From NCBI GenBank assembly GCA_001786955.1, contig MFUM01000002.1, forward strand, positions 3,923 through 64,225: a stretch of DNA of 60,303 nt. The letters run 5' to 3'. The DNA comes from Candidatus Nomurabacteria bacterium RIFCSPHIGHO2_12_FULL_42_19. GTDB lineage: Bacteria; Patescibacteriota; Minisyncoccia; Phycocordibacterales; UBA9973. A program made the position numbers and the translations under genes. Numbering within the stretch: position 1 is the stretch's first letter; every line of letters starts with the position of its first letter. The notes beneath the pieces are model-generated. The model made no database searches. It was not told the DNA's origin and saw nothing but the letters and a program-made list of their open reading frames with translations. Positions 115-28,207 of this stretch are shown here, piece after piece.

Positions 115-151
115 ATCTATATAAATAAAGCCTTATTTTTCATATAAATCA

Positions 152-180
152 TTGACATTTTGAGATAAGTGTGATATACT
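152..180 (+). promoter_or_regulatory. Sigma70-type promoter TTGACA-N17-TATACT for the GC-rich lipoprotein gene
   Basis: TTGACA at 152..157, TATACT at 175..180 preceded by TGa; lies in an AT-rich patch between GC-rich blocks. Confidence 0.6.
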
Positions 181-233
181 ATATGCGAGTTTGTGTGTGC
201 GCGTTCATGGTGAACGAGGCGCATTTGAAAGGG

Positions 234-1025
234 ATGAAGATGCAGAAAATCGTGCGACTGATGATGGTGTTGGCAGTTCTCGGGTTGGTGGCCGCGTGCG
301 CCACCGAGACGTCGACCAAGCCGCAGGAGCAGACCGCGCCGACTGCGCAAACGGCTCCCGCTCCCGAAGCGCCCGCAGCCAAGCCGAGCGGCTCGACCGA
401 GGCGGACTTCATCCGCGCCGGCATCGAGGCCGAGCTCCGCATGCGCGAGCTCGAGAAGAAGCTCACGCCGGACGAGAAGCGCCGCAATTACGACATCCGC
501 AAGGCCGTGCTCGACGTCGCGGTGACCGATTACACCGGCGCGAACAAGGAATTGCCCGAATGGGTGCGCGCCGCTTACGACGCCTACGAGACCGAGGACT
601 ACACCAAGGGCCACGTCGCCTTCCAGCGCTCATTCGGGTGGGGAACGGGCACGTTCCAAGGCAAGCCGTTCTATTGGTTTGCCTTCACGAACACCGACGC
701 CTGGATGCAGTTCGGTTTCTCGGTGAAGCTCGATGGCAACACCAAGAAGGTGGCGCTGAGTCGGAAGGACGGATTTGGCCACGAGTGGGAGGTGGAATTG
801 AATTCGGATCCCACGAAGGGCTACGGTGTCCCCGCAGCGACCTGGATGGGAGTCACGAACGATTGGATCGAACGTGACTGCACCAAGCCGAGGGGTGAAG
901 CCTGCGACATCGGCAGTGCGCTCGACCGCGCCGTCGCCGAGATGAACTCGGCGCTTGGGCTCAAGATGACAGTGAAGGGGAAGTTCCCGTGGGAACCTCT
1001 CCTTATACCTTACGTCGAGAAGTAA
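234..1025 (+). CDS. GC-rich predicted lipoprotein, function unknown (foreign composition)
   Basis: ORF 171..1025. Internal ATG 234 (or 240, with AAAGGG 6 nt upstream) gives MKMQKIVRLMMVLAVLGLVAAC, a signal peptide plus lipobox Cys. Followed by a Pro/Ala/Thr-rich linker. GC-rich third codon positions. Confidence 0.7.
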   Translation: MKMQKIVRLMMVLAVLGLVAACATETSTKPQEQTAPTAQTAPAPEAPAAKPSGSTEADFIRAGIEAELRMRELEKKLTPDEKRRNYDIRKAVLDVAVTDYTGANKELPEWVRAAYDAYETEDYTKGHVAFQRSFGWGTGTFQGKPFYWFAFTNTDAWMQFGFSVKLDGNTKKVALSRKDGFGHEWEVELNSDPTKGYGVPAATWMGVTNDWIERDCTKPRGEACDIGSALDRAVAEMNSALGLKMTVKGKFPWEPLLIPYVEK

Positions 1026-1083
1026 GACCCGCGCCCGGCGGTTCCGAGGCAAGGTGTGATGGACACCATAACCATCAAAAAAA

Positions 1084-2602: not shown

Positions 2603-2665
2603 GATTCGCACTGTCTTCTTTAGGCGGGGGCGCGCGCGATGCCCCCGCCGGGTTTGCCCCCATGT

Positions 2666-2917
2666 TCATGTAATCCAGAACACGAAGGGGAGGTCTGTGT
2701 CCTGTCGGGCTGTCCTGCCCTGCAGAGCAACGGTAGCTGCCAGGGTAGTCTGGAGCGTATTGTCGGCGAACTTGAGGTTTTCGGGTACTACGAACGACCC
2801 GACAAACTTCGTTCGCGAGGGTTCGTCTTCGAACATGAAAACGCGCCCTTTGGTCACTTTCCCGTTCGAGAGGACCTCGAACGAGATTTTCTGTCCGGCT
2901 TCGAATTTCCAATTCAT
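2666..2917 (-). CDS. GC-rich hypothetical protein (83 aa), function unknown
   Basis: GGAGG at 2925..2929, exactly 7 nt before the ATG. GC-rich third positions. The other ORFs overlapping this block lack start signals. Confidence 0.6.
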   Translation of the reverse strand: MNWKFEAGQKISFEVLSNGKVTKGRVFMFEDEPSRTKFVGSFVVPENLKFADNTLQTTLAATVALQGRTARQDTDLPFVFWIT

Positions 2918-2964
2918 GGGGATGCCTCCATCGGGCTTGAAAGCCCGAAAAACTGTTCACTTTT

Positions 2965-2992
2965 AGTATGTATCAAAAACCCGCCCTGTCAA
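2965..2992 (-). promoter_or_regulatory. Sigma70-type promoter TTGACA-N16-CATACT for the 83-aa GC-rich ORF
   Basis: The minus strand reads TTGACA (2992..2987), 16 nt, CATACT (2970..2965). Confidence 0.55.
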
Positions 2993-3029
2993 CAGGTTTA
3001 TTTCCCCAAGTGATGCTTCAGGGTATAAA

Positions 3030-3061
3030 CCCCCACACCTATTTATAAATAGGTGTGGGGG
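3030..3061 (-). terminator. 32-nt perfect palindrome downstream of the exonuclease gene
   Basis: CCCCCACACCTATTTATAAATAGGTGTGGGGG, followed on the minus strand by TTTATA. Confidence 0.55.
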
Positions 3062-3070
3062 TAAATCCAG

Positions 3071-3787
3071 TCATTTTTTTAAATGATGTTTGAGGGTGTA
3101 TACCCAGTCCTCCTCCATTCCTCCGCTTTCAAGTTTCTGCGTCAGCAGCCACTCCAGATATCCGCGGTCGGTCGCGAGCACGTCCTCTATCTTCTTACCA
3201 TTATGTTTTCCGAAACTAAAGGAATGCAGAAGGGAAGGGTGTGAAGAAATCTCTATCATTTTTTTTATGACTTCGTTTTCGTCCAGATTTTCCTCTTTCA
3301 TCATTTTCTTTTTTAATCTTTCAAAAAGTTTTTCCAATACCAATACGTCTCCCATAGCATCGTGAGCGGTCGCATCTATCTCTATTTCAAGTAAATAACG
3401 CAAATATTGCAGATTGTATCTTTCTATTTTTCCCTCCGGATCCAAATATCGTGCAATTCGGAGCGTGCAGATAAAATTATCAGGTATAATATCTTCCTTT
3501 TTAATTATCATCAAATCAAAAAGCGCGTTATGGGCAACGACGATATTTTTCTTGTCTTCAAAAAATTTTTTAATCTTCGGCAAGTCACCACTCTCTTTAA
3601 AAGATTTCTTATCTTCCACCATTTTGTTTGTAATATGGTGCACAGCCGAAGCTTCCGGAGGGATTTTAGTCGGAGGTTTGTAAAGGCCCACAAAACTTTC
3701 ATTGTCATGTTTATAGGCAATTTGAATCAAAAAATCATTTTCCGTATTACCCGTGGTTTCCGTATCAAAAAATATCAACTTAGGCAT
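3071..3787 (-). CDS. DEDDh 3'-5' exonuclease (DnaQ/ExoX-like) with a DUF3820-like C-terminal domain
   Basis: Exo motifs FFDTETTG, HNALFD, HDAMGD. C-terminus FGKHNGKKIEDV..RGYLEWLL. Confidence 0.85.
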   Translation of the reverse strand: MPKLIFFDTETTGNTENDFLIQIAYKHDNESFVGLYKPPTKIPPEASAVHHITNKMVEDKKSFKESGDLPKIKKFFEDKKNIVVAHNALFDLMIIKKEDIIPDNFICTLRIARYLDPEGKIERYNLQYLRYLLEIEIDATAHDAMGDVLVLEKLFERLKKKMMKEENLDENEVIKKMIEISSHPSLLHSFSFGKHNGKKIEDVLATDRGYLEWLLTQKLESGGMEEDWVYTLKHHLKK

Positions 3788-6892: not shown

Positions 6893-8368
6893 ATGCCTGA
6901 TATTATGGAAAAAAAGTATTACCCGACAATTGGTCTTGAAATACACGCGGAATTAAAGACAAACACCAAGATGTTTTGCGCGTGCAAGAATGACCCGGAT
7001 GAGGAAAAACCGAATGTAAATATTTGCCCGGTCTGCATGGCGCATCCGGGAGCATTGCCGGTGCCGAATAAAAAAGCCATTGAAAATGTCATAAAAGTTG
7101 GCTTGGCATTAGGCGGCCAAATTGCCGATTTCACGGAGTTTGATCGCAAGAATTATTTTTATCCGGATATTCCGAAAGGCTACCAGATTTCCCAATATAA
7201 ATATCCGATAGTTTCCGGCGGAAAATTGCTGGGAACAGATATTACTCGTGTGCATTTGGAAGAGGATACAGGAACAAATAAACACATAGATAGCCCCCAG
7301 GTCGGACCTGTGGGCTCCCACAGGTCCGACCTGGGGGCGAATGGGTATTCGCTGATAGATTTCAATCGTGCCGGAGTGCCGCTGATGGAGCTGGTAACAG
7401 AACCGGCAATTCACAGCGCCAAAGAAGCCAGTGATTTTGCCCGTGAACTGCAACTTCTTTTGTGTTATCTTGATGTATCGGAAGCGAATATGGAGAAAGG
7501 AGAAATGAGGGTAGAAGCGAATATTTCCGTTTCACCGGATCCGAAAATTCTTGGCACGAAAGTAGAAGTAAAAAATTTAAATTCTTTCAGAAGCGTCGAG
7601 CGTGCCATCAAATACGAGCTTAATAGAATGACAAAGCTTTTAGAGGAAGGATTGGGAAATGAAATAGTGCAGGAGACTCGTGGCTGGGATGAAAGCAAAA
7701 GTGAAACTTTTTCCCAAAGAAAAAAAGAGGGGAGCGCGGATTACCGCTATTTTCCCGACCCTGATTTGCCGAAAATGAAATTGCATGAAGCATTTGATTT
7801 GGAAAAAATAAAAAAAGAATTGCCGGAACTGCCGGGGGCAAAGCGAGAGAGGTATAGAAAAGATTTTGGAATAAAAGATGAGGATATAGAAGTATATATA
7901 AATGGTTTGGAACTTGCCAAATGGTTTGAAGATGTGGCAAAAATCTTGGCCCAAAAAGATAGTATAAAGATTCTTTCTAACTACGTTACCTCAGATTATC
8001 TTGGATTCAAAAAGAATAACTCAGACATAAAATTACCAAGCTCTAAAAATTTTGTTGAACTTATAAATTTAGTTACAGAAAACAAAATCTCTTCTCGCGC
8101 CGCAAAAGATATTTTGGCAATGATTGTGATAAAAGATGAATCGCCGTTAAAAATCGCGACAGAAAAAGGTTTACTGCAAAGTAGTGACCCGGAAGCATTA
8201 AAAAAAATCGCGCAAAAAATTATTGATGCCAATCCGAAAACCGTAGCGGATTATAAGGGCGGAAAAGAACAGGCCCTTATGTCTCTCGTGGGAGTTATAA
8301 TGAAGGAAACCAAAGGCTCGGCGAATCCATCGGTTGCCAAGCAATTATTAATAGATTTATTGAAATGA
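6893..8368 (+). CDS. gatB: Asp/Glu-tRNA amidotransferase subunit B, carrying an in-frame palindromic insert
   Basis: IGLEIHAEL, CPVC, HLEEDTG, NRAGVPLMELVTEP, and a C-terminal YqeY-like domain. Confidence 0.95.
   Translation: MPDIMEKKYYPTIGLEIHAELKTNTKMFCACKNDPDEEKPNVNICPVCMAHPGALPVPNKKAIENVIKVGLALGGQIADFTEFDRKNYFYPDIPKGYQISQYKYPIVSGGKLLGTDITRVHLEEDTGTNKHIDSPQVGPVGSHRSDLGANGYSLIDFNRAGVPLMELVTEPAIHSAKEASDFARELQLLLCYLDVSEANMEKGEMRVEANISVSPDPKILGTKVEVKNLNSFRSVERAIKYELNRMTKLLEEGLGNEIVQETRGWDESKSETFSQRKKEGSADYRYFPDPDLPKMKLHEAFDLEKIKKELPELPGAKRERYRKDFGIKDEDIEVYINGLELAKWFEDVAKILAQKDSIKILSNYVTSDYLGFKKNNSDIKLPSSKNFVELINLVTENKISSRAAKDILAMIVIKDESPLKIATEKGLLQSSDPEALKKIAQKIIDANPKTVADYKGGKEQALMSLVGVIMKETKGSANPSVAKQLLIDLLK
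7294..7337. repeat. 44-nt perfect palindrome inside gatB
   Basis: CCCCCAGGTCGGACCTGTGGG-ct-CCCACAGGTCCGACCTGGGGG: 21-bp arms, about three quarters G+C, translated as SPQVGPVGSHRSDLGA. Confidence 0.9.
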
Positions 8369-9369
8369 ATAAAGATAAATTAATTGAAACGGTTGCCCGC
8401 CTTGTATCTCCGCCCAAAGGCATTCTTGCCATCGACGAAAGCTTGAGTACCTGCAACAAGCGTTTTGAAAAACTCGGCGTGCCGACGACCGAGGAAAAGC
8501 GCAGGGAATACCGCGAACTCCTGATAACAGCGCCGGAAATGGAGAAATATATTTCCGGTTATATTCTTTTTGACGAAACCATCAGGCAATCCGCAAAAGA
8601 CGGCAAAAGTTTTACTTCTATACTGCAGGCGAAAGGAATAGATATCGGCATAAAAGTTGACCAAGGCTTGATTGATTTCTCGTCGCATCCGGGAGAAAAA
8701 ATTACGCAAGGATTAGAAGGGCTTTCAAGCAGACTCAAGGAATATAAGAATATGGGCGCTACTTTTGCCAAGTGGCGCGTGGTTTATAGCATCGGAGAAA
8801 ATACTCCTTCCGGGGATTGTATGAAAGAAAATGCGGTTATTTTGGTAAAATACGCTCTCATCTGCCAGGAACTGGATATTGTCCCGATTATTGAACCGGA
8901 AGTTTTAATAGATGGCGACCATACAATAGAAAAGTGTTATGAAATTACAGCAGGCAATTTTGACGTGCTTTTTTCCGAATTACGGGATTCAAATGTTTTT
9001 ATTTCCGGCATTGTTTTAAAAACCAGCATGGTGCTCTCCGGGAAAGATGCCGAAGACAAATCTTCTTCCGCTGAAAAAGTCGCGCAGATGACATTACGGT
9101 GCCTGAAGGAACATGTGCCGGAGCATATCGGAGGAATAGTTTTTCTTTCCGGCGGACAAGGCGACGAAGAAGCGGCAATGAATTTGAATACTATGCACCA
9201 GATGGGTTCTCTTCCATGGCCGCTCTCATTTTCTTACGGTCGGGCGATTCAAAATCCCGCTTTTCAGAGTTGGGCGAAGAGTCCTGCTGATATTTCCGGC
9301 GCGCAAGCCCTTCTTCTTGCCGCGGCAAAAAATAACAGCCAGGCTTCAATAGGACAATATAAAAAATAA
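8365..9369 (+). CDS. fba: Class I fructose-bisphosphate aldolase
   Basis: GILAIDES..T..KRFE, IEPEVL, VLKTSMV (Schiff-base Lys region), FSYGRA. Confidence 0.85.
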   Translation: MNKDKLIETVARLVSPPKGILAIDESLSTCNKRFEKLGVPTTEEKRREYRELLITAPEMEKYISGYILFDETIRQSAKDGKSFTSILQAKGIDIGIKVDQGLIDFSSHPGEKITQGLEGLSSRLKEYKNMGATFAKWRVVYSIGENTPSGDCMKENAVILVKYALICQELDIVPIIEPEVLIDGDHTIEKCYEITAGNFDVLFSELRDSNVFISGIVLKTSMVLSGKDAEDKSSSAEKVAQMTLRCLKEHVPEHIGGIVFLSGGQGDEEAAMNLNTMHQMGSLPWPLSFSYGRAIQNPAFQSWAKSPADISGAQALLLAAAKNNSQASIGQYKK

Positions 9370-10021: not shown

Positions 10022-11935
10022 ATGAAAGAAGAGATACAAAAATTTTTTAAAGGGGATACGGACGACAGCGAGGAGACGTTGGTAAAATATTCGCATGATG
10101 CGAGCCTGCTGGAAGTCAGGCCGGAGATTGTGCTTTTTCCGAAAGATTCGGAAGACGTCCAAAATTTGGTAAAATGGGCGGGAGAAAATAAAAATAAATA
10201 TCCCAACCTATCTATCACTCCAAGATGCGCGGGTACGGATATGTCCGGTGGGGCCATTGGGGAATCCATAATTTTAGATTTTAGCCGGTATATGAATAAA
10301 CTGATTGGCGGGCCGTTGCCGATTGATAATCCGCGGGGTTTCCAGATTCCCCATCCTTATCCTAAGCGGAAAAATACGGCTATTCAAAAATTCAAAAATT
10401 ATCCTCTGGTTCCTTCCTATCTTACAACCCAACCCGGGATGTTTTATCGGGATTTTGAAAAAATAACTTTGGAAAAAGGATTGATTTTGCCTTGTTATAC
10501 GGCATCCAAGAGCTTGAATGCGGTGGGGGGGATGTATGGCAATAATTCTGCCGGCGAACGGACTTTGAAATACGGCAAGATAGAGGATTATGTTTTGTCT
10601 GCCAAGGTAGTTTTTGCTGATGGGAATGAATATATTGTAAAGCCATTGACGCAGGATGAATTAAATAAAAAAATTACGCAAGGCGATTTTGAGGGAAACG
10701 TTTATAAAAATATTTTTGAATTGATAAAAGATAATGAAGAAGAAATAAAACAGGCAAAACCGGATGTGCATAAAAATTCCGCAGGATATTATATTTGGAA
10801 TGTAATAAATAATCAGATTGTAAAGAATTCAGAATGGCGTAAGTCCCACCCCGTAATCGGGGAAGGGTCAAGCCAGAGGAATTTTTTACAATCTGATGAA
10901 TTTTTTGACCTTAATAAATTACTTGTTGGTTCGCAGGGGACATTGGGCATTGTCACGGAAATAACTTTCAAGCTGATACCGGATAATAAACACTCGAAAT
11001 TGGTAGTAATTTTCATGAAAGATACGGAAATGCTTGGTCGCCTGGTGGATGAAATTTTAATGCTCAACCCTGAAACGCTTGAAACTTACGACGACAAAAC
11101 GATGAAGCTGGCTGTCAGATTTTTTCCGGATTTTTTGAAAAATAAAGGATTTTTAGGAATGGCTAAATTTATGTGGAGTTTCTTGCCGGAATTTTGGATG
11201 ATGATTACCGGCGGTTTCCCGAAACTGATTCTTCTGGCTGAATTTGCCGGAGATGACGAGGCTGAAGTACATAAGAAATGCGAGGCGCTCAAATCAAAGT
11301 TGAAAATTTTTAATCCCGACGTAAAGTCGGGATCCCGACTAAAAGCGTCGGGGTTAAAAGTCCATATTACCAGAAACGAAACAGAAGCAAATAAATATTG
11401 GGATATCAGAAGAGAAAGCTTCGCGTTATTGCGTAAGCACGTCCAAGGCATGCGCACCGCTCCTTTCATAGATGATATTATCGTTCGTCCGGAATTTTTA
11501 CCTAAATTTCTTCCGGAGCTGAATAATATTTTAAGCAAATACGATTTGACCTATACCTTGGCAGGACATGCCGGCGACGGCAATTTTCACATTATCCCGC
11601 TGATGGATTTCAAGCGTCCCGATACGGCAAAAATAATAATAGAGCTTGGGGAATCCGTGTATGACCTGGTAATAAAATATCACGGCTCAATTACCGCCGA
11701 ACACAATGACGGCCTGATCCGCACGCCCTATTTGCGCAAAATGTATGGAGATAGAATTGTTTTAATTTTTGAAGAGATCAAGAAAATTTTTGACTCCAAA
11801 AACATTTTCAATCCCGGGAAAAAAGTTCCAATTCTAATTCTTAATAAAAGTGGTCCCACCAACGGCGGGGCAGGCACTAAGGAATACATAGCAACACATA
11901 TTGCGGTGGAACATGATGCCAGTCATCATGTTTAG
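10022..11935 (+). CDS. FAD-linked oxidase (GlcD / D-lactate dehydrogenase family) carrying two repeat-element inserts
   Basis: FAD-binding PCMH region PRCAGTDMSGG; C-terminal GHAGDGNFH and GSITAEHNDG. Confidence 0.8.
   Translation: MKEEIQKFFKGDTDDSEETLVKYSHDASLLEVRPEIVLFPKDSEDVQNLVKWAGENKNKYPNLSITPRCAGTDMSGGAIGESIILDFSRYMNKLIGGPLPIDNPRGFQIPHPYPKRKNTAIQKFKNYPLVPSYLTTQPGMFYRDFEKITLEKGLILPCYTASKSLNAVGGMYGNNSAGERTLKYGKIEDYVLSAKVVFADGNEYIVKPLTQDELNKKITQGDFEGNVYKNIFELIKDNEEEIKQAKPDVHKNSAGYYIWNVINNQIVKNSEWRKSHPVIGEGSSQRNFLQSDEFFDLNKLLVGSQGTLGIVTEITFKLIPDNKHSKLVVIFMKDTEMLGRLVDEILMLNPETLETYDDKTMKLAVRFFPDFLKNKGFLGMAKFMWSFLPEFWMMITGGFPKLILLAEFAGDDEAEVHKKCEALKSKLKIFNPDVKSGSRLKASGLKVHITRNETEANKYWDIRRESFALLRKHVQGMRTAPFIDDIIVRPEFLPKFLPELNNILSKYDLTYTLAGHAGDGNFHIIPLMDFKRPDTAKIIIELGESVYDLVIKYHGSITAEHNDGLIRTPYLRKMYGDRIVLIFEEIKKIFDSKNIFNPGKKVPILILNKSGPTNGGAGTKEYIATHIAVEHDASHHV
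10812..10897. repeat. Repeat family C copy 1 (TIR-bearing element inside the FAD oxidase gene)
   Basis: 19-bp TIRs ATCAGATTGTAAAGAATTC / GAATTTTTTACAATCTGAT (1 mismatch) flank the core GGCGTAAGTCCCACCCCG..GGGGAAGGGT.AAGCC, which is shared with 28021..28101. Confidence 0.85.
11315..11361. repeat. Repeat family A copy 1 (double hairpin inside the FAD oxidase gene)
   Basis: CCCGACgtaaaGTCGGG-at-CCCGACtaaaagcGTCGGG-gTTAAAAGT; matches 21282..21328. Confidence 0.85.
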
Positions 11936-14068: not shown

Positions 14069-14287
14069 ATGAAAAAAGATATACATCCGAAATACAATAT
14101 AAAGACCAAAGCAACCTGCGCCTGCGGGGCGGTTTTTGAAGTTGGCTCTACTGTGCCTGAAATCAAAATGGAAATCTGCAGCCAATGCCACCCTTTTTAT
14201 ACGGGTAATGAAAAAATTATGGATACTGCCGGACGCGTGGAGAGATTCAATAAGCGTAGAGCTGCTACGGCAAAAGTTAAGAAGTAA
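14069..14287 (+). CDS. rpmE: 50S ribosomal protein L31
   Basis: MKKDIHPKY...[10 protein letters not shown]. Confidence 0.95.
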
Positions 14288-14406: not shown

Positions 14407-15219
14407 ATGGATTGGCAAGAGTGGAAAAAAAATAAAGAAAATTCAGGGATAAAAGAATCGGGAACAGAGGAATTCCCGAATGAAATAGTGTTGGAAGTGC
14501 GGGCGGGCGCCGGCGGAGACGAAGCCTCGCTTTTCGCCTGGGAACTTGCGCATATGTATGAAAAATTTGCCGAAGCACAAGACTGGCTTTGGAAAGTTAA
14601 TTATGAATCAAAAAGCGATTTGAACGGCTACAAAGAAGCGAGTTTTGAAATAAAAGGAAAGGATGTTTTTAAAAAAATGCGTTACGAAACCGGCGTGCAC
14701 CGGGTGCAGAGAATTCCGGCAACCGAAAAAAACGGCCGGGTGCATACTTCCACTGCTTCGGTGGCTGTGCTTCCAATCAGAAAAAAAATAACTTTCCAAA
14801 TAAATCCAGCTGATTTTGAAATGGAATATTCTCGTTCCGGCGGAAAAGGCGGACAGAATGTAAACAAAGTTGAGACAGCAGTGCGCATCATCCATAAGCC
14901 GACGGGACTTGATGTTCGTTCCACTAACGAGCGAAGCCAATTAACAAACAGAGAAAAAGCGATGATGATTTTAACGGCAAAACTTCAGCAGCTGGAAGAA
15001 GAAAAAGAAGCCAGCAAGCATGCCGGTATCCGGAAGAATCAAATCGGCACCGGCGACCGCTCGGAAAAAATTCGTACTTATAATTTTCCGCAGGACCGCG
15101 TGACCGACCACCGCATCAAAAAATCCTGGCACAACCTGCCGAAAATAATGGAAGGGGATATCGGAAACATCATTGCCGACATAGAATCCGGCGCGGTGGG
15201 AGACGAAAGCGAAGAGTAA
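14407..15219 (+). CDS. prfA: Peptide chain release factor 1 lacking N-terminal domain 1
   Basis: PAT tripeptide (RIPATEKNGRVHTS) and GGQ (SGGKGGQNVNK). The protein starts about 15 aa before the LEVRAGAGGDEA block. Only 120 nt separate it from rpmE. Confidence 0.85.
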   Translation: MDWQEWKKNKENSGIKESGTEEFPNEIVLEVRAGAGGDEASLFAWELAHMYEKFAEAQDWLWKVNYESKSDLNGYKEASFEIKGKDVFKKMRYETGVHRVQRIPATEKNGRVHTSTASVAVLPIRKKITFQINPADFEMEYSRSGGKGGQNVNKVETAVRIIHKPTGLDVRSTNERSQLTNREKAMMILTAKLQQLEEEKEASKHAGIRKNQIGTGDRSEKIRTYNFPQDRVTDHRIKKSWHNLPKIMEGDIGNIIADIESGAVGDESEE

Positions 15220-16341: not shown

Positions 16342-16365
16342 TTTAATCTTTGATAAGAGAATTAA

Positions 16366-16391
16366 CAAAAAACCACCTTAGGTGGTTTTTT
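16366..16391 (+). terminator. Terminator after the RRM gene
   Basis: AAAAAACCACCttaGGTGGTTTTTT. Confidence 0.75.
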
Positions 16392-16422
16392 GTTTGATTT
16401 GTGTTATATTTATTTAAGTTTT

Positions 16423-24382: not shown

Positions 24383-26329
24383 TTACAATAGGTCCTCCGG
24401 GTCAACGAATACGTCAAAGTTGGGCGGAAGAGCGGCGAGTTTCTGGAGCAGGTTTTCATCTATGGACGAGCCGGCGGAAATTTCCGGCAAGGACCACTTT
24501 TTCGGGTCTATCTTTATCAGCGCATTGGTGGCATATTTGCCTTTGAGCCGCGCGATAAATCCGCTGAAAATTTCAGGATTGTATTCTTTAAAAATTTCTT
24601 CCAATACTTTTTTTGCTTTTATTGTTTGTTCTTTATCGCCTAAATGCGTAATTTTTATGAAACGCTTGAATGGCGGATAATCTAGATTTCTTCTGTCTTC
24701 TAATTCTTCCCGCACGAAAGACAATAAATTTTCCATTTTAATTGCCATAATTGCCGGGTCATTTTCTTTCTTAGTTTGAATAATAAGTTTTTCGGTTGTG
24801 CTGCCAATTACCGAAAGCATGATTTGAATGATTTTTTCACTCATTTTAAAATTCGGTATGTTCCAAAGCGAATCAAAAGAAGCGATAATTGATAACGAAA
24901 CTTTGTTTTTTAAATAGAAAAATGCCATTTCGGTGCCTATCAATATCGATCCGGGATTTTCTTCAAACTCCCTGATTATTTTTTCTGCGCCCTTGGCTGT
25001 TTTCGCAGAATCTTTATCTAATTTAAAAACCTCAACTTTTGTAAAATTTTCTTTAATAGATTCATATACAGTATCGGTGCCTATACCAAGAGGCACCAGA
25101 TTCCAGCTTCCGCAAGCGGCGCAGACGATTTCTCCATTCAAATCTGTTTCGCACCGGTTGCAGACAAATATCCTTTTTTTGCCCTGATGAGACGAATAAA
25201 GAACCAAAGGCGACCCGCATTTTTCACAGTCCACTATCTCGCCGCAGTCTTTGCATATAGTCATCGTCGCCAATCCTTTCCTCAATGAGAAAATAAAAAC
25301 ATTTTTCTTTTTGGTTGTCGTATTTTTAATTTCTTCCAGGCTTTTATCTTCCAAGATTTTAAATTTTTTCTCTTTATTTAAAATTTCTATTTCTCCGTCA
25401 AAATTAATTCTAAAAGAAAGCGGATGCATTGGATTTAATCCGTCCGTTTCTTGTCTCGCAATACTCTCATAACGAAGTAATGAATCGCCCAAGATGAATT
25501 TCGCATTGATTTTTGCCGCAAAAAGCTCTATAAAAAATCTCAAATCAAAATGAGGTTTTGCAATCATTTTATAAGCATTAGAACTTTCATGTTCCGCTAT
25601 GACGGTTCCGATATCATATCGTGGAATAGATAAAAATGGCGCAGTTCCGAGTATCAGCACCGGGTGAGCGAGAGTTATTATTTGCTCGATTTTTTTAATA
25701 ATTTTTTTTGAACTTGATCCCCCGTATATGGCAAAAGCGAATTTCTCGATTCCTTTAGAAAGAGATTCTTCAAAAATTCTTATATCGTATTCGGTTGGCA
25801 ATACTATGAAAACGGATTTTTTCAGGGCAAAAGATCCGCGAATTAAAGTTTTATAAGCCGAGATGCGGTCTTCAAGCGGCGCCTGGAAAATCAGCTTCTC
25901 GGGCTTTACCTCACCCCCGACCCCTCTCCTTGCCAAGGAGAGGGGTGCTGAAAGCGGGGTGAGGTTTGTATTCTTGAATTTAGCTATTTTGTCATAATTT
26001 TCCCGCAAGACAGTCGGAATTAAAGAAGTAATTCCGTCATTTTTGCCCGAAATAAAATATTTACTGGTTTCAATCGCCGAATCAAGATATTTTTTCAAAA
26101 AAATCGAACGTTCTTTTACTTCGCTTATTTTTTTCAAATTGAAAGACAAACCCTTTATGTTTGATTTTGCGAGAGCGACATCTTCCGAAGAGACAACTAA
26201 TCCTAAAATTTTTTTATTGCGCAAAGGGATAACCACGATACTTCCATTTGGAATATCCTGCGCGGTGAAATAAGTCAAGTCTTCTTTCCAAGCTCCCTTT
26301 TTAAGCGGGATTACCGTCACGATCTTCAT
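24383..26329 (-). CDS. priA: Primosomal protein N' (PriA helicase), carrying an in-frame repeat insert
   Basis: Cys-rich Zn insertion CKDCGEIVDCEKCGSPLV...CNRC...CAACGS; helicase lobes; C-terminal YPPF. Confidence 0.9.
   Translation of the reverse strand: MKIVTVIPLKKGAWKEDLTYFTAQDIPNGSIVVIPLRNKKILGLVVSSEDVALAKSNIKGLSFNLKKISEVKERSIFLKKYLDSAIETSKYFISGKNDGITSLIPTVLRENYDKIAKFKNTNLTPLSAPLSLARRGVGGEVKPEKLIFQAPLEDRISAYKTLIRGSFALKKSVFIVLPTEYDIRIFEESLSKGIEKFAFAIYGGSSSKKIIKKIEQIITLAHPVLILGTAPFLSIPRYDIGTVIAEHESSNAYKMIAKPHFDLRFFIELFAAKINAKFILGDSLLRYESIARQETDGLNPMHPLSFRINFDGEIEILNKEKKFKILEDKSLEEIKNTTTKKKNVFIFSLRKGLATMTICKDCGEIVDCEKCGSPLVLYSSHQGKKRIFVCNRCETDLNGEIVCAACGSWNLVPLGIGTDTVYESIKENFTKVEVFKLDKDSAKTAKGAEKIIREFEENPGSILIGTEMAFFYLKNKVSLSIIASFDSLWNIPNFKMSEKIIQIMLSVIGSTTEKLIIQTKKENDPAIMAIKMENLLSFVREELEDRRNLDYPPFKRFIKITHLGDKEQTIKAKKVLEEIFKEYNPEIFSGFIARLKGKYATNALIKIDPKKWSLPEISAGSSIDENLLQKLAALPPNFDVFVDPEDLL
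25908..25965. repeat. Repeat family B copy 2 (inside priA)
   Basis: ACCTCACCCCcgaCCCCTCTCCTTGCCAAGGAGAGGGGtgctgaaagcGGGGTGAGGT, translated as TPLSAPLSLARRGVGGEV. Confidence 0.85.
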
Positions 26330-27442: not shown

Positions 27443-28207
27443 ATGATTTCACAACATTTAGACAAAAATAACCTGCATCATGCATATTTGATAGAAGGTG
27501 CGCGTGGCGAGATTGTTCCAGAAATCGTAAAATTCCTGAAAAGTTTGGGCATAAATACCGTTGGCAATCCTGATTTTTGCCATATCGTAATTGATAATTT
27601 TAAAATTGATGAGGCATTTGACCTGCGCGCCATGTCTTCAAATAAAAGTTTCTCTTCTGTTAAAAAAGTATTTGTAATTTGCGTCAATAGTTTTTCTCTG
27701 GATGCCCAGAATGTCCTGCTTAAGATGTTTGAGGAGCCGATACAAAATACTCATTTTTTCCTGATTGTTCCGGATGCCAATGCTCTTTTAAAAACTCTCG
27801 TTTCCAGATTTTATTTAATTAAGCCGAAAGCGGAAGCGGGCGATGAATTAGAAGCGAAAAAATTTCTTGCCATGCCTTTAAAAAACAGAATTGATTTTAT
27901 TAAAGAATTATTGATTGAACCGGAAGAAAAAGATGAAGAGGGGAATGAAATTATCGCTTTAGATTCCACTCGTTCTAAAGCATTAAAATTTTTAAATGCG
28001 TTGGAGGGTGCTTTACATCGCAAGTTCCTGAAAAATTCTGCCGGCTTTACCCTTCCCCTTCGGGGTGGGACTTACGCCGCTCAGAATTTTTCAGGAACTT
28101 GCTTTGAGCATTTCTTCAAAGTCCGAGAATTTCTGCGTATGCCCGGTTCGTCCACGAAAAGCCTGATGGAATCAGTGGCATTAATTATACCTATTTTTAA
28201 AAATTAA
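27443..28207 (+). CDS. holB: DNA polymerase III delta'-like clamp-loader subunit, carrying an in-frame repeat insert
   Basis: LHHAYLIEG, KVFVI, LLKMFEEP, TLVSRF (SRC-like motif). Confidence 0.65.
   Translation: MISQHLDKNNLHHAYLIEGARGEIVPEIVKFLKSLGINTVGNPDFCHIVIDNFKIDEAFDLRAMSSNKSFSSVKKVFVICVNSFSLDAQNVLLKMFEEPIQNTHFFLIVPDANALLKTLVSRFYLIKPKAEAGDELEAKKFLAMPLKNRIDFIKELLIEPEEKDEEGNEIIALDSTRSKALKFLNALEGALHRKFLKNSAGFTLPLRGGTYAAQNFSGTCFEHFFKVREFLRMPGSSTKSLMESVALIIPIFKN
28021..28101. repeat. Repeat family C copy 2 (81-nt element with perfect 20-bp TIRs inside holB)
   Basis: CAAGTTCCTGAAAAATTCTG ... CAGAATTTTTCAGGAACTTG. The core is the reverse complement of the core at 10835..10876. Confidence 0.9.

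Follow-up and report, generated by a model that had tools for sequence, protein, structure and literature searches.

An in-frame palindromic insertion in gatB of a Candidatus Nomurabacteria genome is probably a REPIN-like repeat doublet of a RAYT-associated family

The DNA analysed here, hereafter the window, is a stretch of 60,303 nucleotides from Candidatus Nomurabacteria bacterium RIFCSPHIGHO2_12_FULL_42_19 (contig MFUM01000002.1, positions 3,923 to 64,225). It contains an ORF of gatB, an essential tRNA-amidotransferase gene, for which T. maritima GatB is the closest protein of solved structure (3AL0_B, E=4e-122), and this ORF harbours an in-frame insertion together with a GC-rich palindrome. 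The features are, in window coordinates:

6893..8368, + strand: gatB ORF, 491 amino acid residues, host of the insertion; Pfam GatB_N and GatB_Yqey are assigned to its homologues
7292..7339, + strand: in-frame insertion of 48 nt, encoding S134-A149 (SPQVGPVGSHRSDLGA)
7293..7338, no strand assigned: probable REP doublet (REPIN-like hairpin) with a 22-bp perfect stem and a 2-nt spacer, assigned from fold energies and covariation in nine species
7294..7314, no strand assigned: putative left REP unit CCCCCAGGTCGGACCTGTGGG, a near-palindrome around GTC-G-GAC with one internal C.T mismatch
7315..7316, no strand assigned: spacer CT, 2 nt between the units
7317..7337, no strand assigned: putative right REP unit CCCACAGGTCCGACCTGGGGG, an inverted copy of the left unit, read SHRSDLG

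A first-pass annotation of this DNA had reported a 44-nt palindrome with arms of 21 bp (7294-7337, CCCCCAGGTCGGACCTGTGGG-CT-CCCACAGGTCCGACCTGGGGG), and it exists as described, except that each perfect arm extends one base further, to 22 nt (7293-7314 and 7317-7338, 100% complementary, spacer of 2 nt); if one mismatch is tolerated, pairing reaches 7291-7340. That about three quarters of it are G+C within an AT-rich gene is equally correct (0.75 for the 44-mer versus 0.40 in the remaining gatB). The arms are themselves near-palindromes centred on GTC-G/C-GAC, an internal symmetry that the earlier description had missed, and the whole consists of two inverted 21-nt palindromic units. The unit consensus per arm is CC(A/C)CAGGTC(C/G)GACCTG(T/G)GG (19-21 nt), and the unit of the window pairs with itself at 9 of 10 pairs around GTC-N-GAC. 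Dinucleotide-preserving shuffles (n=100) give 0 arm matches, 22-bp perfect hairpins are expected by chance in 60 kb at the order of 1e-9, and a chance origin of the palindrome is excluded. Two other stems of the window, an intergenic hairpin between convergent ORFs (3029-3062) and a stem at 16364-16394, are terminator-like and lie outside this repeat family. An Rfam scan of the window identifies four tRNAs only and no family at the palindrome.

The calculated fold energies are -51.4 kcal/mol for RNA (z = -8.8) and -30.3 kcal/mol for DNA (z = -9.7), with 0 of 200 shuffles as good in either case. A stem of such stability in an mRNA raises the question of a locus-specific function of the gatB transcript, i.e., a ribosome pause, an RNase III site, or the tuning of mRNA stability or of the expression of neighbouring genes. 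Its length would suit such a role, as about 20-22 bp is the minimal length of a double-stranded RNA substrate.

The insertion is located between the conserved GatB blocks HLEEDTGTNKH and YSLIDFNRAGVPLMELV, in agreement with the earlier placement, and is read as SPQVGPVGSHRSDLGA (residues 134-149). Because the palindrome is symmetric, an antisense ORF (7109..7453, - strand) reads PQVGPVGAHRSDLGA across it, as had been proposed. Alignment of GatB orthologues, suggested by the first-pass annotation, defines the indel as 48 nt: the insert is missing in 52 of 119 close GatB homologues, where a linker of 4-5 residues, mostly DRGDF, is found instead, and in most of 80 species-representative loci, the empty site being GAC CGN GGN GAY TTY. 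In the alignment to 3AL0_B a gap stands opposite the SPQVGPVGSHRSDLGA segment, and in an AF2 model residues 127-159 have pLDDT values <50 and no secondary structure. The insert thus sits in what is modelled, with low confidence, as a permissive loop of variable length, and the framing of the site as part of the catalytic region of GatB is not supported in view of this variable loop, its low-confidence model, and the dispersal of the unit elsewhere described below.

No target-site duplication is visible at the gatB insert, the flanks (...ATAGATA / GAATGGG...) being without direct repeat, and neither a transposition intermediate nor an allele of this strain with an empty site was seen. The two units of the doublet are read in different frames. 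Among relatives, the first unit at this site is always read in one frame (x-V-G-x), which is more easily reconciled with one ancient insertion than with several independent ones. A GatB tree calculated without the insert segment (119 sequences, average-linkage clustering) is star-like with distances of 0.21-0.33, and sequences with the various insert types are interspersed with insert-free ones; this clustering is compatible with vertical descent plus losses and also with repeated gain. Chimeric reads in amplified metagenomic DNA can yield perfect palindromes, and an assembly or amplification artefact, e.g., a chimeric inverted join, might therefore be suspected. Such an origin is hardly conceivable here, as the insertion is exactly 48 nt long and preserves the frame, GatB of the window belongs to a cluster of 4 sequences, and independent assemblies from different samples and sources carry homologous hairpins at the same site (L081-L084, L085-L088, L207-L210).

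In nine species, homologous hairpins of differing sequence occupy the orthologous gatB codon site. Across them 96.5% of the stem cells are paired and 12 of 22 pairs have changed on both sides, values that 0 of 500 shuffles reach, and slid controls pair at 27-52%. Pairing at the level of the unit, i.e., within each arm, amounts to 89.4% with 9 compensatory pairs. G.U combinations occupy 4 of 198 cells, all of them in the outermost or innermost two stem pairs, versus 7 plain mismatches. The peptides encoded at the site (SPQVGPVGSHRSDLGA, FPEVELRGISPKFNFGE, FPHVRHVETHMSDMWE, and others) are hypervariable while the pairing of the DNA is kept. Instead of being conserved as protein without palindromic DNA, the segment is absent from the 52 homologues mentioned and from T. 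maritima GatB, and where it is present the DNA hairpin is conserved and the peptide is not. If the 16-residue insert were an adaptive loop of GatB, for example for contact with GatA, GatC or tRNA, the symmetry of the DNA would be incidental. An in-frame, stop-free insert that is retained in several lineages and adjoins the conserved HLEED motif is what such a loop would look like, but conserved pairing beneath hypervariable peptides, the translation of the two units in different frames, the modelled disorder of the loop, and the lack of the insert in about half of the close homologues make this explanation highly improbable.

A second site in gatB (around nt 1080, in the linker before NFAEL and upstream of the ISSRxAKD helix) also contains perfect palindromes, which share the core of the first (GGAAGTCCGACTTCC), are read xEVRLPx and cause no length change with respect to species lacking them; sequence can therefore turn palindromic in situ. 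This would be in line with growth of the gatB palindrome in place, a short quasi-palindrome having been enlarged by replication errors of the template-switch (hairpin-templated) type; the same process would keep it perfect, and neither a mobile element nor a transposase would be involved. The perfect arms and the concerted four-way changes would then be products of self-templated correction. Against such growth stand the empty site, which has no unit-like seed, identical 27-nt palindromes in two genes, gatB and dapF, of a single genome (L033), and the identity of each gatB arm at 20 of 21 positions to the RAYT-associated unit CCCACAGGTCSGACCTGTGGG, which is present at many loci and on which independent growth would not converge. 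Overall, an origin in situ appears quite improbable.

A metagenome scan with the symmetric 19-mer identifies at least 112 stretches, some of which, given the size of the database, will be unrelated hairpins sharing a 9-nt half-site by chance, especially on the few high-GC contigs; many among those listed hold several copies or doublets. Five units are present on contig L113, four on L126, and two sites (L110 and L116) on Ga0247840_10000307. The unit occurs in-frame in genes for MnmA, AtpG (doublet), Pol III delta', RNase H, XerC/D (doublet), RsmE, MetAP, ScpA, and PIF1 helicase, in the last case at one shared site on 4 contigs, and it is found in intergenic DNA as well, on low-GC contigs of Patescibacteria type. 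The core AGTCNGACT has 30 occurrences in 1.45 Mb of Paceibacterota DNA, where 8 are expected, an excess of about one copy per 60 kb. In the window, gatB, the PriA-like ORF, and the Pol III delta' ORF contain in-frame palindromes; outside gatB the unit is not detected there even with 3 mismatches allowed. As regards copies outside the window, for which the first-pass annotation had recommended a search, similar units are present on metagenome contigs, and the exact 21-mer has 0 matches in 185,579 species-representative genomes, which is uninformative as to copy number.

These data also bear on a function of the gatB mRNA hairpin. Retention of the hairpin at one codon position in nine species, with more than half of its pairs changed on both sides, speaks for such a function, as does the stability of the RNA stem. 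However, many GatB homologues do without the insert, and GatB expression therefore does not depend on it; copies of the unit are scattered over intergenic DNA and unrelated genes and accompany RAYT genes; the arms are self-complementary, which a simple mRNA stem does not need; and pairing is almost purely Watson-Crick, as expected of a constraint on DNA symmetry and not of an RNA-only constraint. A locus-specific mRNA hairpin is thus considered unlikely, and the repeat might also have acquired a function of this kind secondarily, by exaptation.

Among the at least 112 listed loci, 10 possess a putative RAYT gene with units inside or adjoining it (including L099, L101, L108, L111, and L113). 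In L113, five units are situated around and within the RAYT gene, in L099 and L111 there is one unit on each flank and one internal, and in L201 and L204 the internal and the flanking units carry one common variant sequence. An in-frame unit directly after the HUH motif is kept in 118 of 120 RAYT homologues, and the unit inside RAYT genes can give the same peptide, SHRSDLG, as the right unit of gatB. RAYTs with internal SHRSDLG (P0211, P0195) use other codons for it, their unit being GCCTAGGTCAGACCTAGGC, a variant that differs from the one in the window, and therefore the cognate RAYT of the exact variant in the window has not been found; phmmer detects no RAYT gene in the 60-kb window. RAYTs of L022 and L035 are flanked by a different Paceibacterota REP type, TTTAGTAGTTSAACTACTAAA, which contains GTAG, and the RAYT of L025 is flanked by a different inverted repeat, unrelated to the gatB insert of L025 itself.

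Assignment of these proteins to the RAYTs is based on several observations. The NCBIfam model NF047646 ('REP-associated tyrosine transposase') matches them with E=4e-13 to 3e-6 and 27-49 bits, which is below its curated cut-off of 80 bits, and Pfam Y1_Tnp matches the candidates with E=0.004, an assignment that already exists as a precomputed one for some members. NHFH, the HUH motif, shows no variation, and neither do three tyrosines in the next ~70 residues, including that of the YIHLNP motif, one of which would be the catalytic residue. In a fold search against the PDB, using a query model of low confidence (pLDDT 58.7), the complex of E. coli RAYT with a REP hairpin (4ER8_A) is the sole significant match (E=1.9e-4), followed by TnpA of ISDra2 and IS608; sequence searches against the PDB (phmmer and profile) give no significant match to 4ER8 (profile E=0.69). 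Database names of these proteins are Patescibacteria, Parcubacteria, Nomurabacteria or Paceibacterota transposase, or 'RayT'.

REPINs consist of two inverted units that, separated by a short spacer, are predicted to form one long hairpin in which compensatory changes are common (PMC3116915), and REPIN/RAYT systems are treated in PMC3333891 (2012) and by Bertels et al. (2017; PMC5581495). The gatB element resembles them in that two inverted palindromic units would form one long ssDNA or RNA hairpin, in that compensatory changes keep the hairpin at the gatB site, in that on related contigs a single putative HUH/Y1 transposase gene has the unit on either flank, and in that the modelled fold of this transposase matches the E. 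coli RAYT-REP complex best. It differs from them in several respects. The host is a genome of the Patescibacteria (CPR), and our literature search found no paper linking RAYT or REPIN with Patescibacteria. The gatB copy is intragenic and translated instead of extragenic; its spacer is 2 nt, whereas in the Pseudomonas GI type 71 bp separate the first bases of the two conserved 16-mers; copy number appears low, with roughly one unit in every 60 kb of the examined Paceibacterota loci, compared with dozens to hundreds in a genome of Pseudomonas or E. coli; and the patescibacterial RAYT genes hold a conserved in-frame unit directly after the HUH motif. E. coli RAYT requires the tetranucleotide GTAG (PMC3333891), and neither GTAG, CTAC nor CGTC is present within or beside 7288-7343.

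The Y1 HUH transposases of IS200/IS605 read short imperfect hairpins as ssDNA, and terminal inverted repeats and target duplications are lacking (PMC3333891). The gatB hairpin, at which no target duplication is visible, is reminiscent of the subterminal hairpins of these elements and of palindrome-associated elements derived from them, and the ISDra2 and IS608 TnpA folds come next after RAYT. However, no transposase or tnpB lies between the two gatB hairpins, the element is symmetric with a length of 46 nt, and the associated gene is like the single-copy RAYT type and not like a multi-copy IS.

Closer to the situation in gatB are intragenic REPs. According to the parts of Di Nocera, De Gregorio & Rocco (2013; PMC3733652) used here, in which the literature on Rickettsia palindromic elements (RPE) is also summarised, REP units and dimers lie in-frame in genes for known proteins, over half of the reported intragenic inserts are dimers, partners can be spaced by 1-2 bp, and many hosts are genes for replication, repair or RNA-related functions. 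The gatB element, likewise an in-frame dimer with close spacing, and the in-frame palindromes in the PriA-like and Pol III delta' ORFs of the window fit this pattern. As far as those parts go, the families described are end-tagged by GTAG or CGTC and are hosted by Verrucomicrobia, Proteobacteria, and Rickettsia, whereas the gatB unit is untagged, and they contain no description of one orthologous codon site that recurrently holds diverged yet perfect hairpins in many species.

Other classes of elements agree less well with the data. A MITE should have TIRs bounding a non-palindromic body and a target-site duplication, but a single 46-nt palindrome without direct repeat is found here. Uptake signals of the DUS/USS type need about one copy per kb, far above the excess calculated for the core. 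PARCELs (palindromic amphipathic repeat coding elements) are, in the part of their description available to us, intragenic tandem repeats of repeat proteins, and gatB contains a single 46-nt doublet. Diversity-generating retroelements, dif/Xer sites, telomere-resolvase sites, integron attC sites, CRISPR repeats, and sequencing adaptors, as they are generally described, were dropped because their spacing, sequence or context does not fit and because the RAYT association accounts for the data.

Taken together, the gatB palindrome is probably a REPIN-like REP doublet, belonging to a Patescibacteria repeat family associated with RAYT and tolerated in a permissive loop. Since the unit is dispersed around RAYTs, in other genes, and intergenically, the presence of the palindrome would be explained by the biology of a repeat element and not by regulation of gatB. 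A RAYT, presumably acting as an HUH/Y1 enzyme of the IS200/IS605 superfamily, may have placed the doublet, or may maintain it, through recognition of ssDNA hairpins and strand transfer. In a genome that would offer very little intergenic space, the copies surviving selection would be those with a length that is a multiple of 3, free of stops, and placed where an essential protein has a permissive surface loop. Pairing would be kept by the hairpin requirement of the element itself or by turnover, i.e., excision followed by re-insertion, or conversion by copies elsewhere, and presumably not by a function specific to gatB. Ribosome pausing or RNase III sensitivity caused by a stem of -51 kcal/mol, if any, would be a side effect; an influence on translation or on the stability of the mRNA is plausible on physical grounds, and the data can be explained without it.

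A broader reading, which is possible but for the time being rather doubtful, is that of a phylum-wide patescibacterial REPIN-RAYT system adapted to extremely compact genomes, with mostly intragenic hairpins, niche loops, and a RAYT-internal unit. The hairpins would then lie largely within essential genes as in-frame translated loops, the hosts being gatB and the PriA-like and Pol III delta' genes in the window and AtpG, MnmA, PIF1, XerC/D, RNase H, and DapF elsewhere. Sites such as the GatB loop between HLEED and NRAG would serve as orthologous niches of long standing, where compensatory or concerted change across species preserves a perfect hairpin, and the RAYT-internal unit would let the enzyme recognise, and possibly regulate, its own gene.

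As intragenic REP dimers have already been published in the parts of the 2013 study cited above, the gatB case represents an extension and not a new principle; an in-frame hairpin repeat in gatB is a known kind of event, here in a little-studied phylum. Insertion of a repeat element, and not a regulatory or catalytic feature, would explain the GC-rich palindrome as well as why the length of GatB is hypervariable in Paceibacterota, and similar odd loops in other CPR proteins may share such an origin, which should be considered during annotation. The gatB site offers a natural series for studying how REPIN hairpins are maintained, the candidates being selection, transposase-dependent turnover, and self-templated correction. 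For the Candidate Phyla Radiation, to which systems of the REP/RAYT type would be extended, the finding would mean that where intergenic space is scarce a sizeable share of the copies resides in-frame in housekeeping genes.

The sequence CCCCCAGGTCGGACCTGTGGG-CT-CCCACAGGTCCGACCTGGGGG at 7294-7337 lies within an ORF identified as GatB: Pfam assigns GatB_N and GatB_Yqey to its homologues, and its best solved relative is GatB of T. maritima (3AL0_B, E=4e-122).

6893..8368, forward strand: gatB ORF, 491 aa

The perfect palindrome that the first-pass annotation had described within gatB is confirmed, with arms of 22 nt (7293-7314 and 7317-7338) rather than 21 and a 2-nt spacer, and its estimate of about three quarters G+C inside an AT-rich gene agrees with the 75% measured for the 44-mer against 40% for the surrounding gatB. 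The palindrome is indeed translated, as GatB residues 134-149 (SPQVGPVGSHRSDLGA), and the product of the antisense ORF across it includes PQVGPVGAHRSDLGA. A match to the arm occurred in 0 of 100 shuffles of the window. As RNA, the 66-nt context of the palindrome has a fold energy of -51.4 kcal/mol (z = -8.8), and as DNA one of -30.3 kcal/mol (z = -9.7). That this predicted stem of -51 kcal/mol would affect how the mRNA is translated or degraded, as first proposed, is plausible and superfluous for explaining the data. Overlooked at first was that each arm is itself a near-palindrome centered on GTC-G/C-GAC, and for this reason the arms also match each other in direct orientation, with 3 mismatches. 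The gatB repeat unit contains no GTAG or CGTC tag.

Comparison of GatB orthologues, as the first-pass annotation had recommended, defines the indel. The top homologues (73-81% identity) belong to Nomurabacteria, Paceibacterota, and other Patescibacteria, and in 119 of the best ones the linker was measured from the HLEEDTxNKH block to SL(I/V)DFNRxG.

Length of the GatB linker in the 119 homologues
4-5 residues (mostly DRGDF, insert-free): 52 of 119
6-11 residues: 7 of 119
12-17 residues: 27 of 119
18-26 residues: 33 of 119

The inserted peptides are strongly dissimilar (SPQVGPVGSHRSDLGA, FPEVELRGISPKFNFGE, FPHVRHVETHMSDMWE, SVSDVGRPKFGRPTSDGE, SGVGHPEFQVSNTRND), and T. maritima GatB shows a gap opposite the insert. 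AlphaFold2 modeling of this GatB (mean pLDDT 79.4) gives residues 127-159, between strands 115-124 and 163-169, a pLDDT <50 and no secondary structure. Length variation, the gap in 3AL0_B, and the low-pLDDT stretch together indicate that the insert is an excursion of a length-tolerant loop; it is located outside the conserved core, and the earlier description of it as a feature of the catalytic region is not supported.

Across 80 species-representative gatB loci and 8 further contigs, every long insert is a near-perfect hairpin of 18-25 bp at one codon position, the sequences differing. When nine hairpins of the type seen in the window are aligned, standard pairs make up 96.5% of cells and 12 of the 22 pairs have changed on both sides (35 cells), values matched in 0 of 500 shuffles; sliding the partner by 1-3 columns lowers pairing to 27-52%. 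G.U occurs in only 4 cells and plain mismatches in 7, so that pairing is essentially Watson-Crick, as expected for a symmetry shared by both strands of the DNA. For the inner palindromes of the two arms, pairing reaches 89.4%, with 9 compensatory pairs, and all nine hairpins keep their first unit in one frame (x-V-x-x; in four of them V is followed by G). In the hairpin of contig L210 (8710-8787), a 3-nt insertion in the right arm (CCCATAGGT-GGT-CTGACC...) keeps the frame and breaks the symmetry, which is decay under host-ORF constraint. Medium-length inserts (GDTSTSLSAG, GDPAKDGAG, GDPEGKQASYGAG, SSLSTGQAG; proteins P0005, P0013, P0016, P0033, P0042, P0074, and others) form a separate group. 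Among their loci (L018 8144-8242, L023 384-482, L036 10349-10444), L036 has a clear 15-bp hairpin and the others fold weakly; these inserts may derive from units that have decayed, or belong to another family.

Copies of this type of unit outside the window, for which a search had been suggested, do exist. In 1.45 Mb of Paceibacterota DNA (the window and 82 loci), 22 odd palindromes were seen that have a GTY-N-RAC core and are perfect over 9 or more pairs, about 0.35 being expected; apart from the gatB loop, their locations include a second position in gatB, dapF, and the scpA/scpB junction, among other places. The symmetric 19-mer CCMCAGGTCSGACCTGKGG is present in at least 112 metagenome stretches. 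The window has no second copy of the gatB unit, and the exact 21-mer has no match among species-representative genomes. Among the matches listed, contigs are mostly of 30-45% G+C, doublets or multiple copies are frequent, and roughly 42 of 137 units fall inside ORFs of 150 aa or more, some of these ORFs being spurious. Again among these matches, low-GC contigs carry the unit in frame within MnmA, Pol III delta', RNase H, RsmE, and methionine aminopeptidase and at the ScpA C-terminus, and a doublet in frame within the ATP synthase gamma subunit (SAQVRPVQELHRSDLWD) and an XerC/D-type recombinase; a PIF1-type helicase has an in-frame unit at one site on at least 4 contigs. The unit is open in all three frames (PQVGPVG, HRSDLW, TGPTCG), which favors the survival of intragenic copies.

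Individual loci illustrate this dispersal. In L033, gatB (11068-11094) and dapF (14626-14654) share one 27-nt palindrome (ATTGTTGGAAGTCCGACTTCCAACAAT), the two copies being 3.5 kb apart and the dapF copy in frame; L059 has a related unit at the same dapF position (8651-8679) and L035 a dapF unit at another (14247-14267). A doublet (CCCATAGGTCTGACCTATGGG) spans the scpA stop and scpB start in L045 (2170-2228), and L116 bears a different variant (CCACAGGTCGGACCTGTGG) at the scpA 3' end (1008-1032), which is another orthologous site with diverged variants, like the gatB loop.

The second gatB site lies at about nt 1080 of the gene, in the linker before NFAEL and upstream of the ISSRxAKD helix. 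Its palindromes are perfect, with the core GGAAGTC-N-GACTTCC, and read xEVRLPx.

Palindromes at the second gatB site (locus, coordinates)
L015 11083-11103
L019 2076-2096
L028 11062-11082
L033 11068-11094
L036 11088-11110
L070 11082-11110
L069 3690-3750

Length is unchanged relative to palindrome-free species, the window among them, which indicates that some in-situ conversion occurs and suggests conversion or in-situ growth rather than simple insertion at this site. In L069 a doublet is inserted there, adding about 19 residues.

Genes for REP-associated tyrosine transposases (RAYTs), detected with the family profile, are found on 10 of the at least 112 unit loci, each with units inside and/or flanking. 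In metagenome locus L113, a 229-aa ORF with five units around and within it matches Pfam Y1_Tnp (E=0.004) as well as NCBIfam NF047646 'REP-associated tyrosine transposase' (E=9.7e-12). The RAYT of L099 has 7593 relatives at E<=1e-10, the named ones being Patescibacteria, Parcubacteria, Nomurabacteria, Paceibacterota or Moranbacteria transposases or 'REP element-mobilizing transposase RayT'. With its low-confidence AlphaFold2 model (pLDDT 58.7), the sole significant PDB fold match was E. coli RAYT with a REP hairpin (4ER8_A, E=1.9e-4), followed by ISDra2 and IS608 TnpA; sequence-only PDB searches with RAYT gave nothing significant. Both arms of the gatB palindrome in the window share 20 of 21 positions each with the RAYT-associated unit CCCACAGGTCSGACCTGTGGG, and the right arm reads SHRSDLG, the peptide of the unit inside RAYT genes. 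Four Paceibacterota gatB loci (L007, L022, L025, L035) also have RAYT genes, with REP types of their own. In L022 (11421-12912) and L035 (11416-12118) the RAYT lies immediately downstream of gatB, with an AT-rich, GTAG-bearing REP type (AAATTTAGTAGTTSAACTACTAAATTT) on its flanks and inside it; the gatB loop is empty in both.

Directly after the RAYT HUH motif, a REP unit is read in frame (NHFH-xxx-(I)SHRSDLW / SPRSDLG / CHRSDLC) in 118 of 120 homologues (P0121-P0240).

In-frame units in RAYT genes (contig, coordinates)
L099 10023-10041
L111 1302-1326
L113 11283-11307
L108 1455-1481
L201 10265-10293
L204 10271-10287

H..W, P..G, and C..C covary, the DNA palindrome being preserved, and in L201 and L204 the internal unit has the sequence of the gene-flanking ones. 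This unit, of which we found no description in the cited REP/RAYT literature, may serve self-recognition or autoregulation.

The window contains further palindromes and one compositional anomaly.

28020-28102: 83-nt hairpin, in frame in a Pol III delta'-like ORF (27443..28207, forward strand; Pfam DNA_pol3_delta2 E=6e-17)
25920-25946: 27-nt palindrome ACCCCTCTCCTTGCCAAGGAGAGGGGT, in frame (..APLSLARRGV..) in a PriA-like ORF (24383..26329, reverse strand, 648 aa; weak Pfam PriA_3primeBD match)
3029-3062: perfect 34-nt palindrome ACCCCCACACCTATTTA/TAAATAGGTGTGGGGGT between convergent ORFs (2639..3013, forward; 3071..3787, reverse)
1-2000: G+C 0.51 (about 0.40 elsewhere), long overlapping ORFs on both strands (117..1052), no Rfam match

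The delta'-like hairpin, read ...RKFLKNSAGFTLPLRGGTYAAQNFSGTC..., has 21-nt perfect arms (GCAAGTTCCTGAAAAATTCTG / CAGAATTTTTCAGGAACTTGC) and a 41-nt spacer with its own GC-rich stem (DNA fold -32.4 kcal/mol, z = -10.8). It appears to be another palindromic insertion into an essential gene, larger than the one in gatB. The PriA-like palindrome (CCCCTCTCCTT...AAGGAGAGGGG) recurs on L018 (4436-4461) and L145 (1023-1047), the contig of the latter also bearing a RAYT, and may represent a second repeat family. The intergenic palindrome has the appearance of a bidirectional terminator, and its sequence is not related to that of the gatB unit.

A REPIN consists of two inverted palindromic units that form one long hairpin (PMC3116915). 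The gatB doublet matches this definition in its inverted-unit anatomy, the RAYT association of its unit in Patescibacteria, and its compensatory changes, and on these grounds it is most likely a REP doublet inserted into a permissive loop, where it survives because the reading frame is kept. These features also agree with what has been found for the E. coli RAYT, an enzyme whose binding and cleavage of REP hairpins require single-stranded DNA (PMC3333891). No RAYT gene was detected within the 60-kb window by phmmer; a RAYT of the window's own genome would have placed the gatB copy or may maintain it, and selection may merely tolerate it. The conserved frame of the first unit at the gatB site suggests that the element was inserted once, long ago, and that it then underwent hairpin-preserving change and was precisely lost many times. 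Turnover or conversion from each genome's repeat pool would also fit two observations: arms are near-perfect in all the species, and the stems of the window and L081 are identical although their GatBs are only 74-75% identical. The star-like GatB tree is compatible with either history.

The nearest known entities to this REP doublet are REPIN-RAYT systems and intragenic REPs/RPEs. Among the cases described in one survey are intragenic, in-frame REP units and dimers, some with partners 1-2 bp apart, in Opitutus, Thauera, Rickettsia (RPE-4, RPE-6), and others; replication, repair or RNA-related genes are frequent among the hosts (PMC3733652). In contrast to these systems, the host phylum here is Patescibacteria, for which we found no literature on RAYT or REPIN; the unit is without the usual tetranucleotide tag, its copy number is apparently low, one gatB codon site is recurrently occupied by diverged perfect hairpins, and the RAYT genes hold a conserved in-frame unit covarying with the flanking ones. 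These differences are variations on a known theme.
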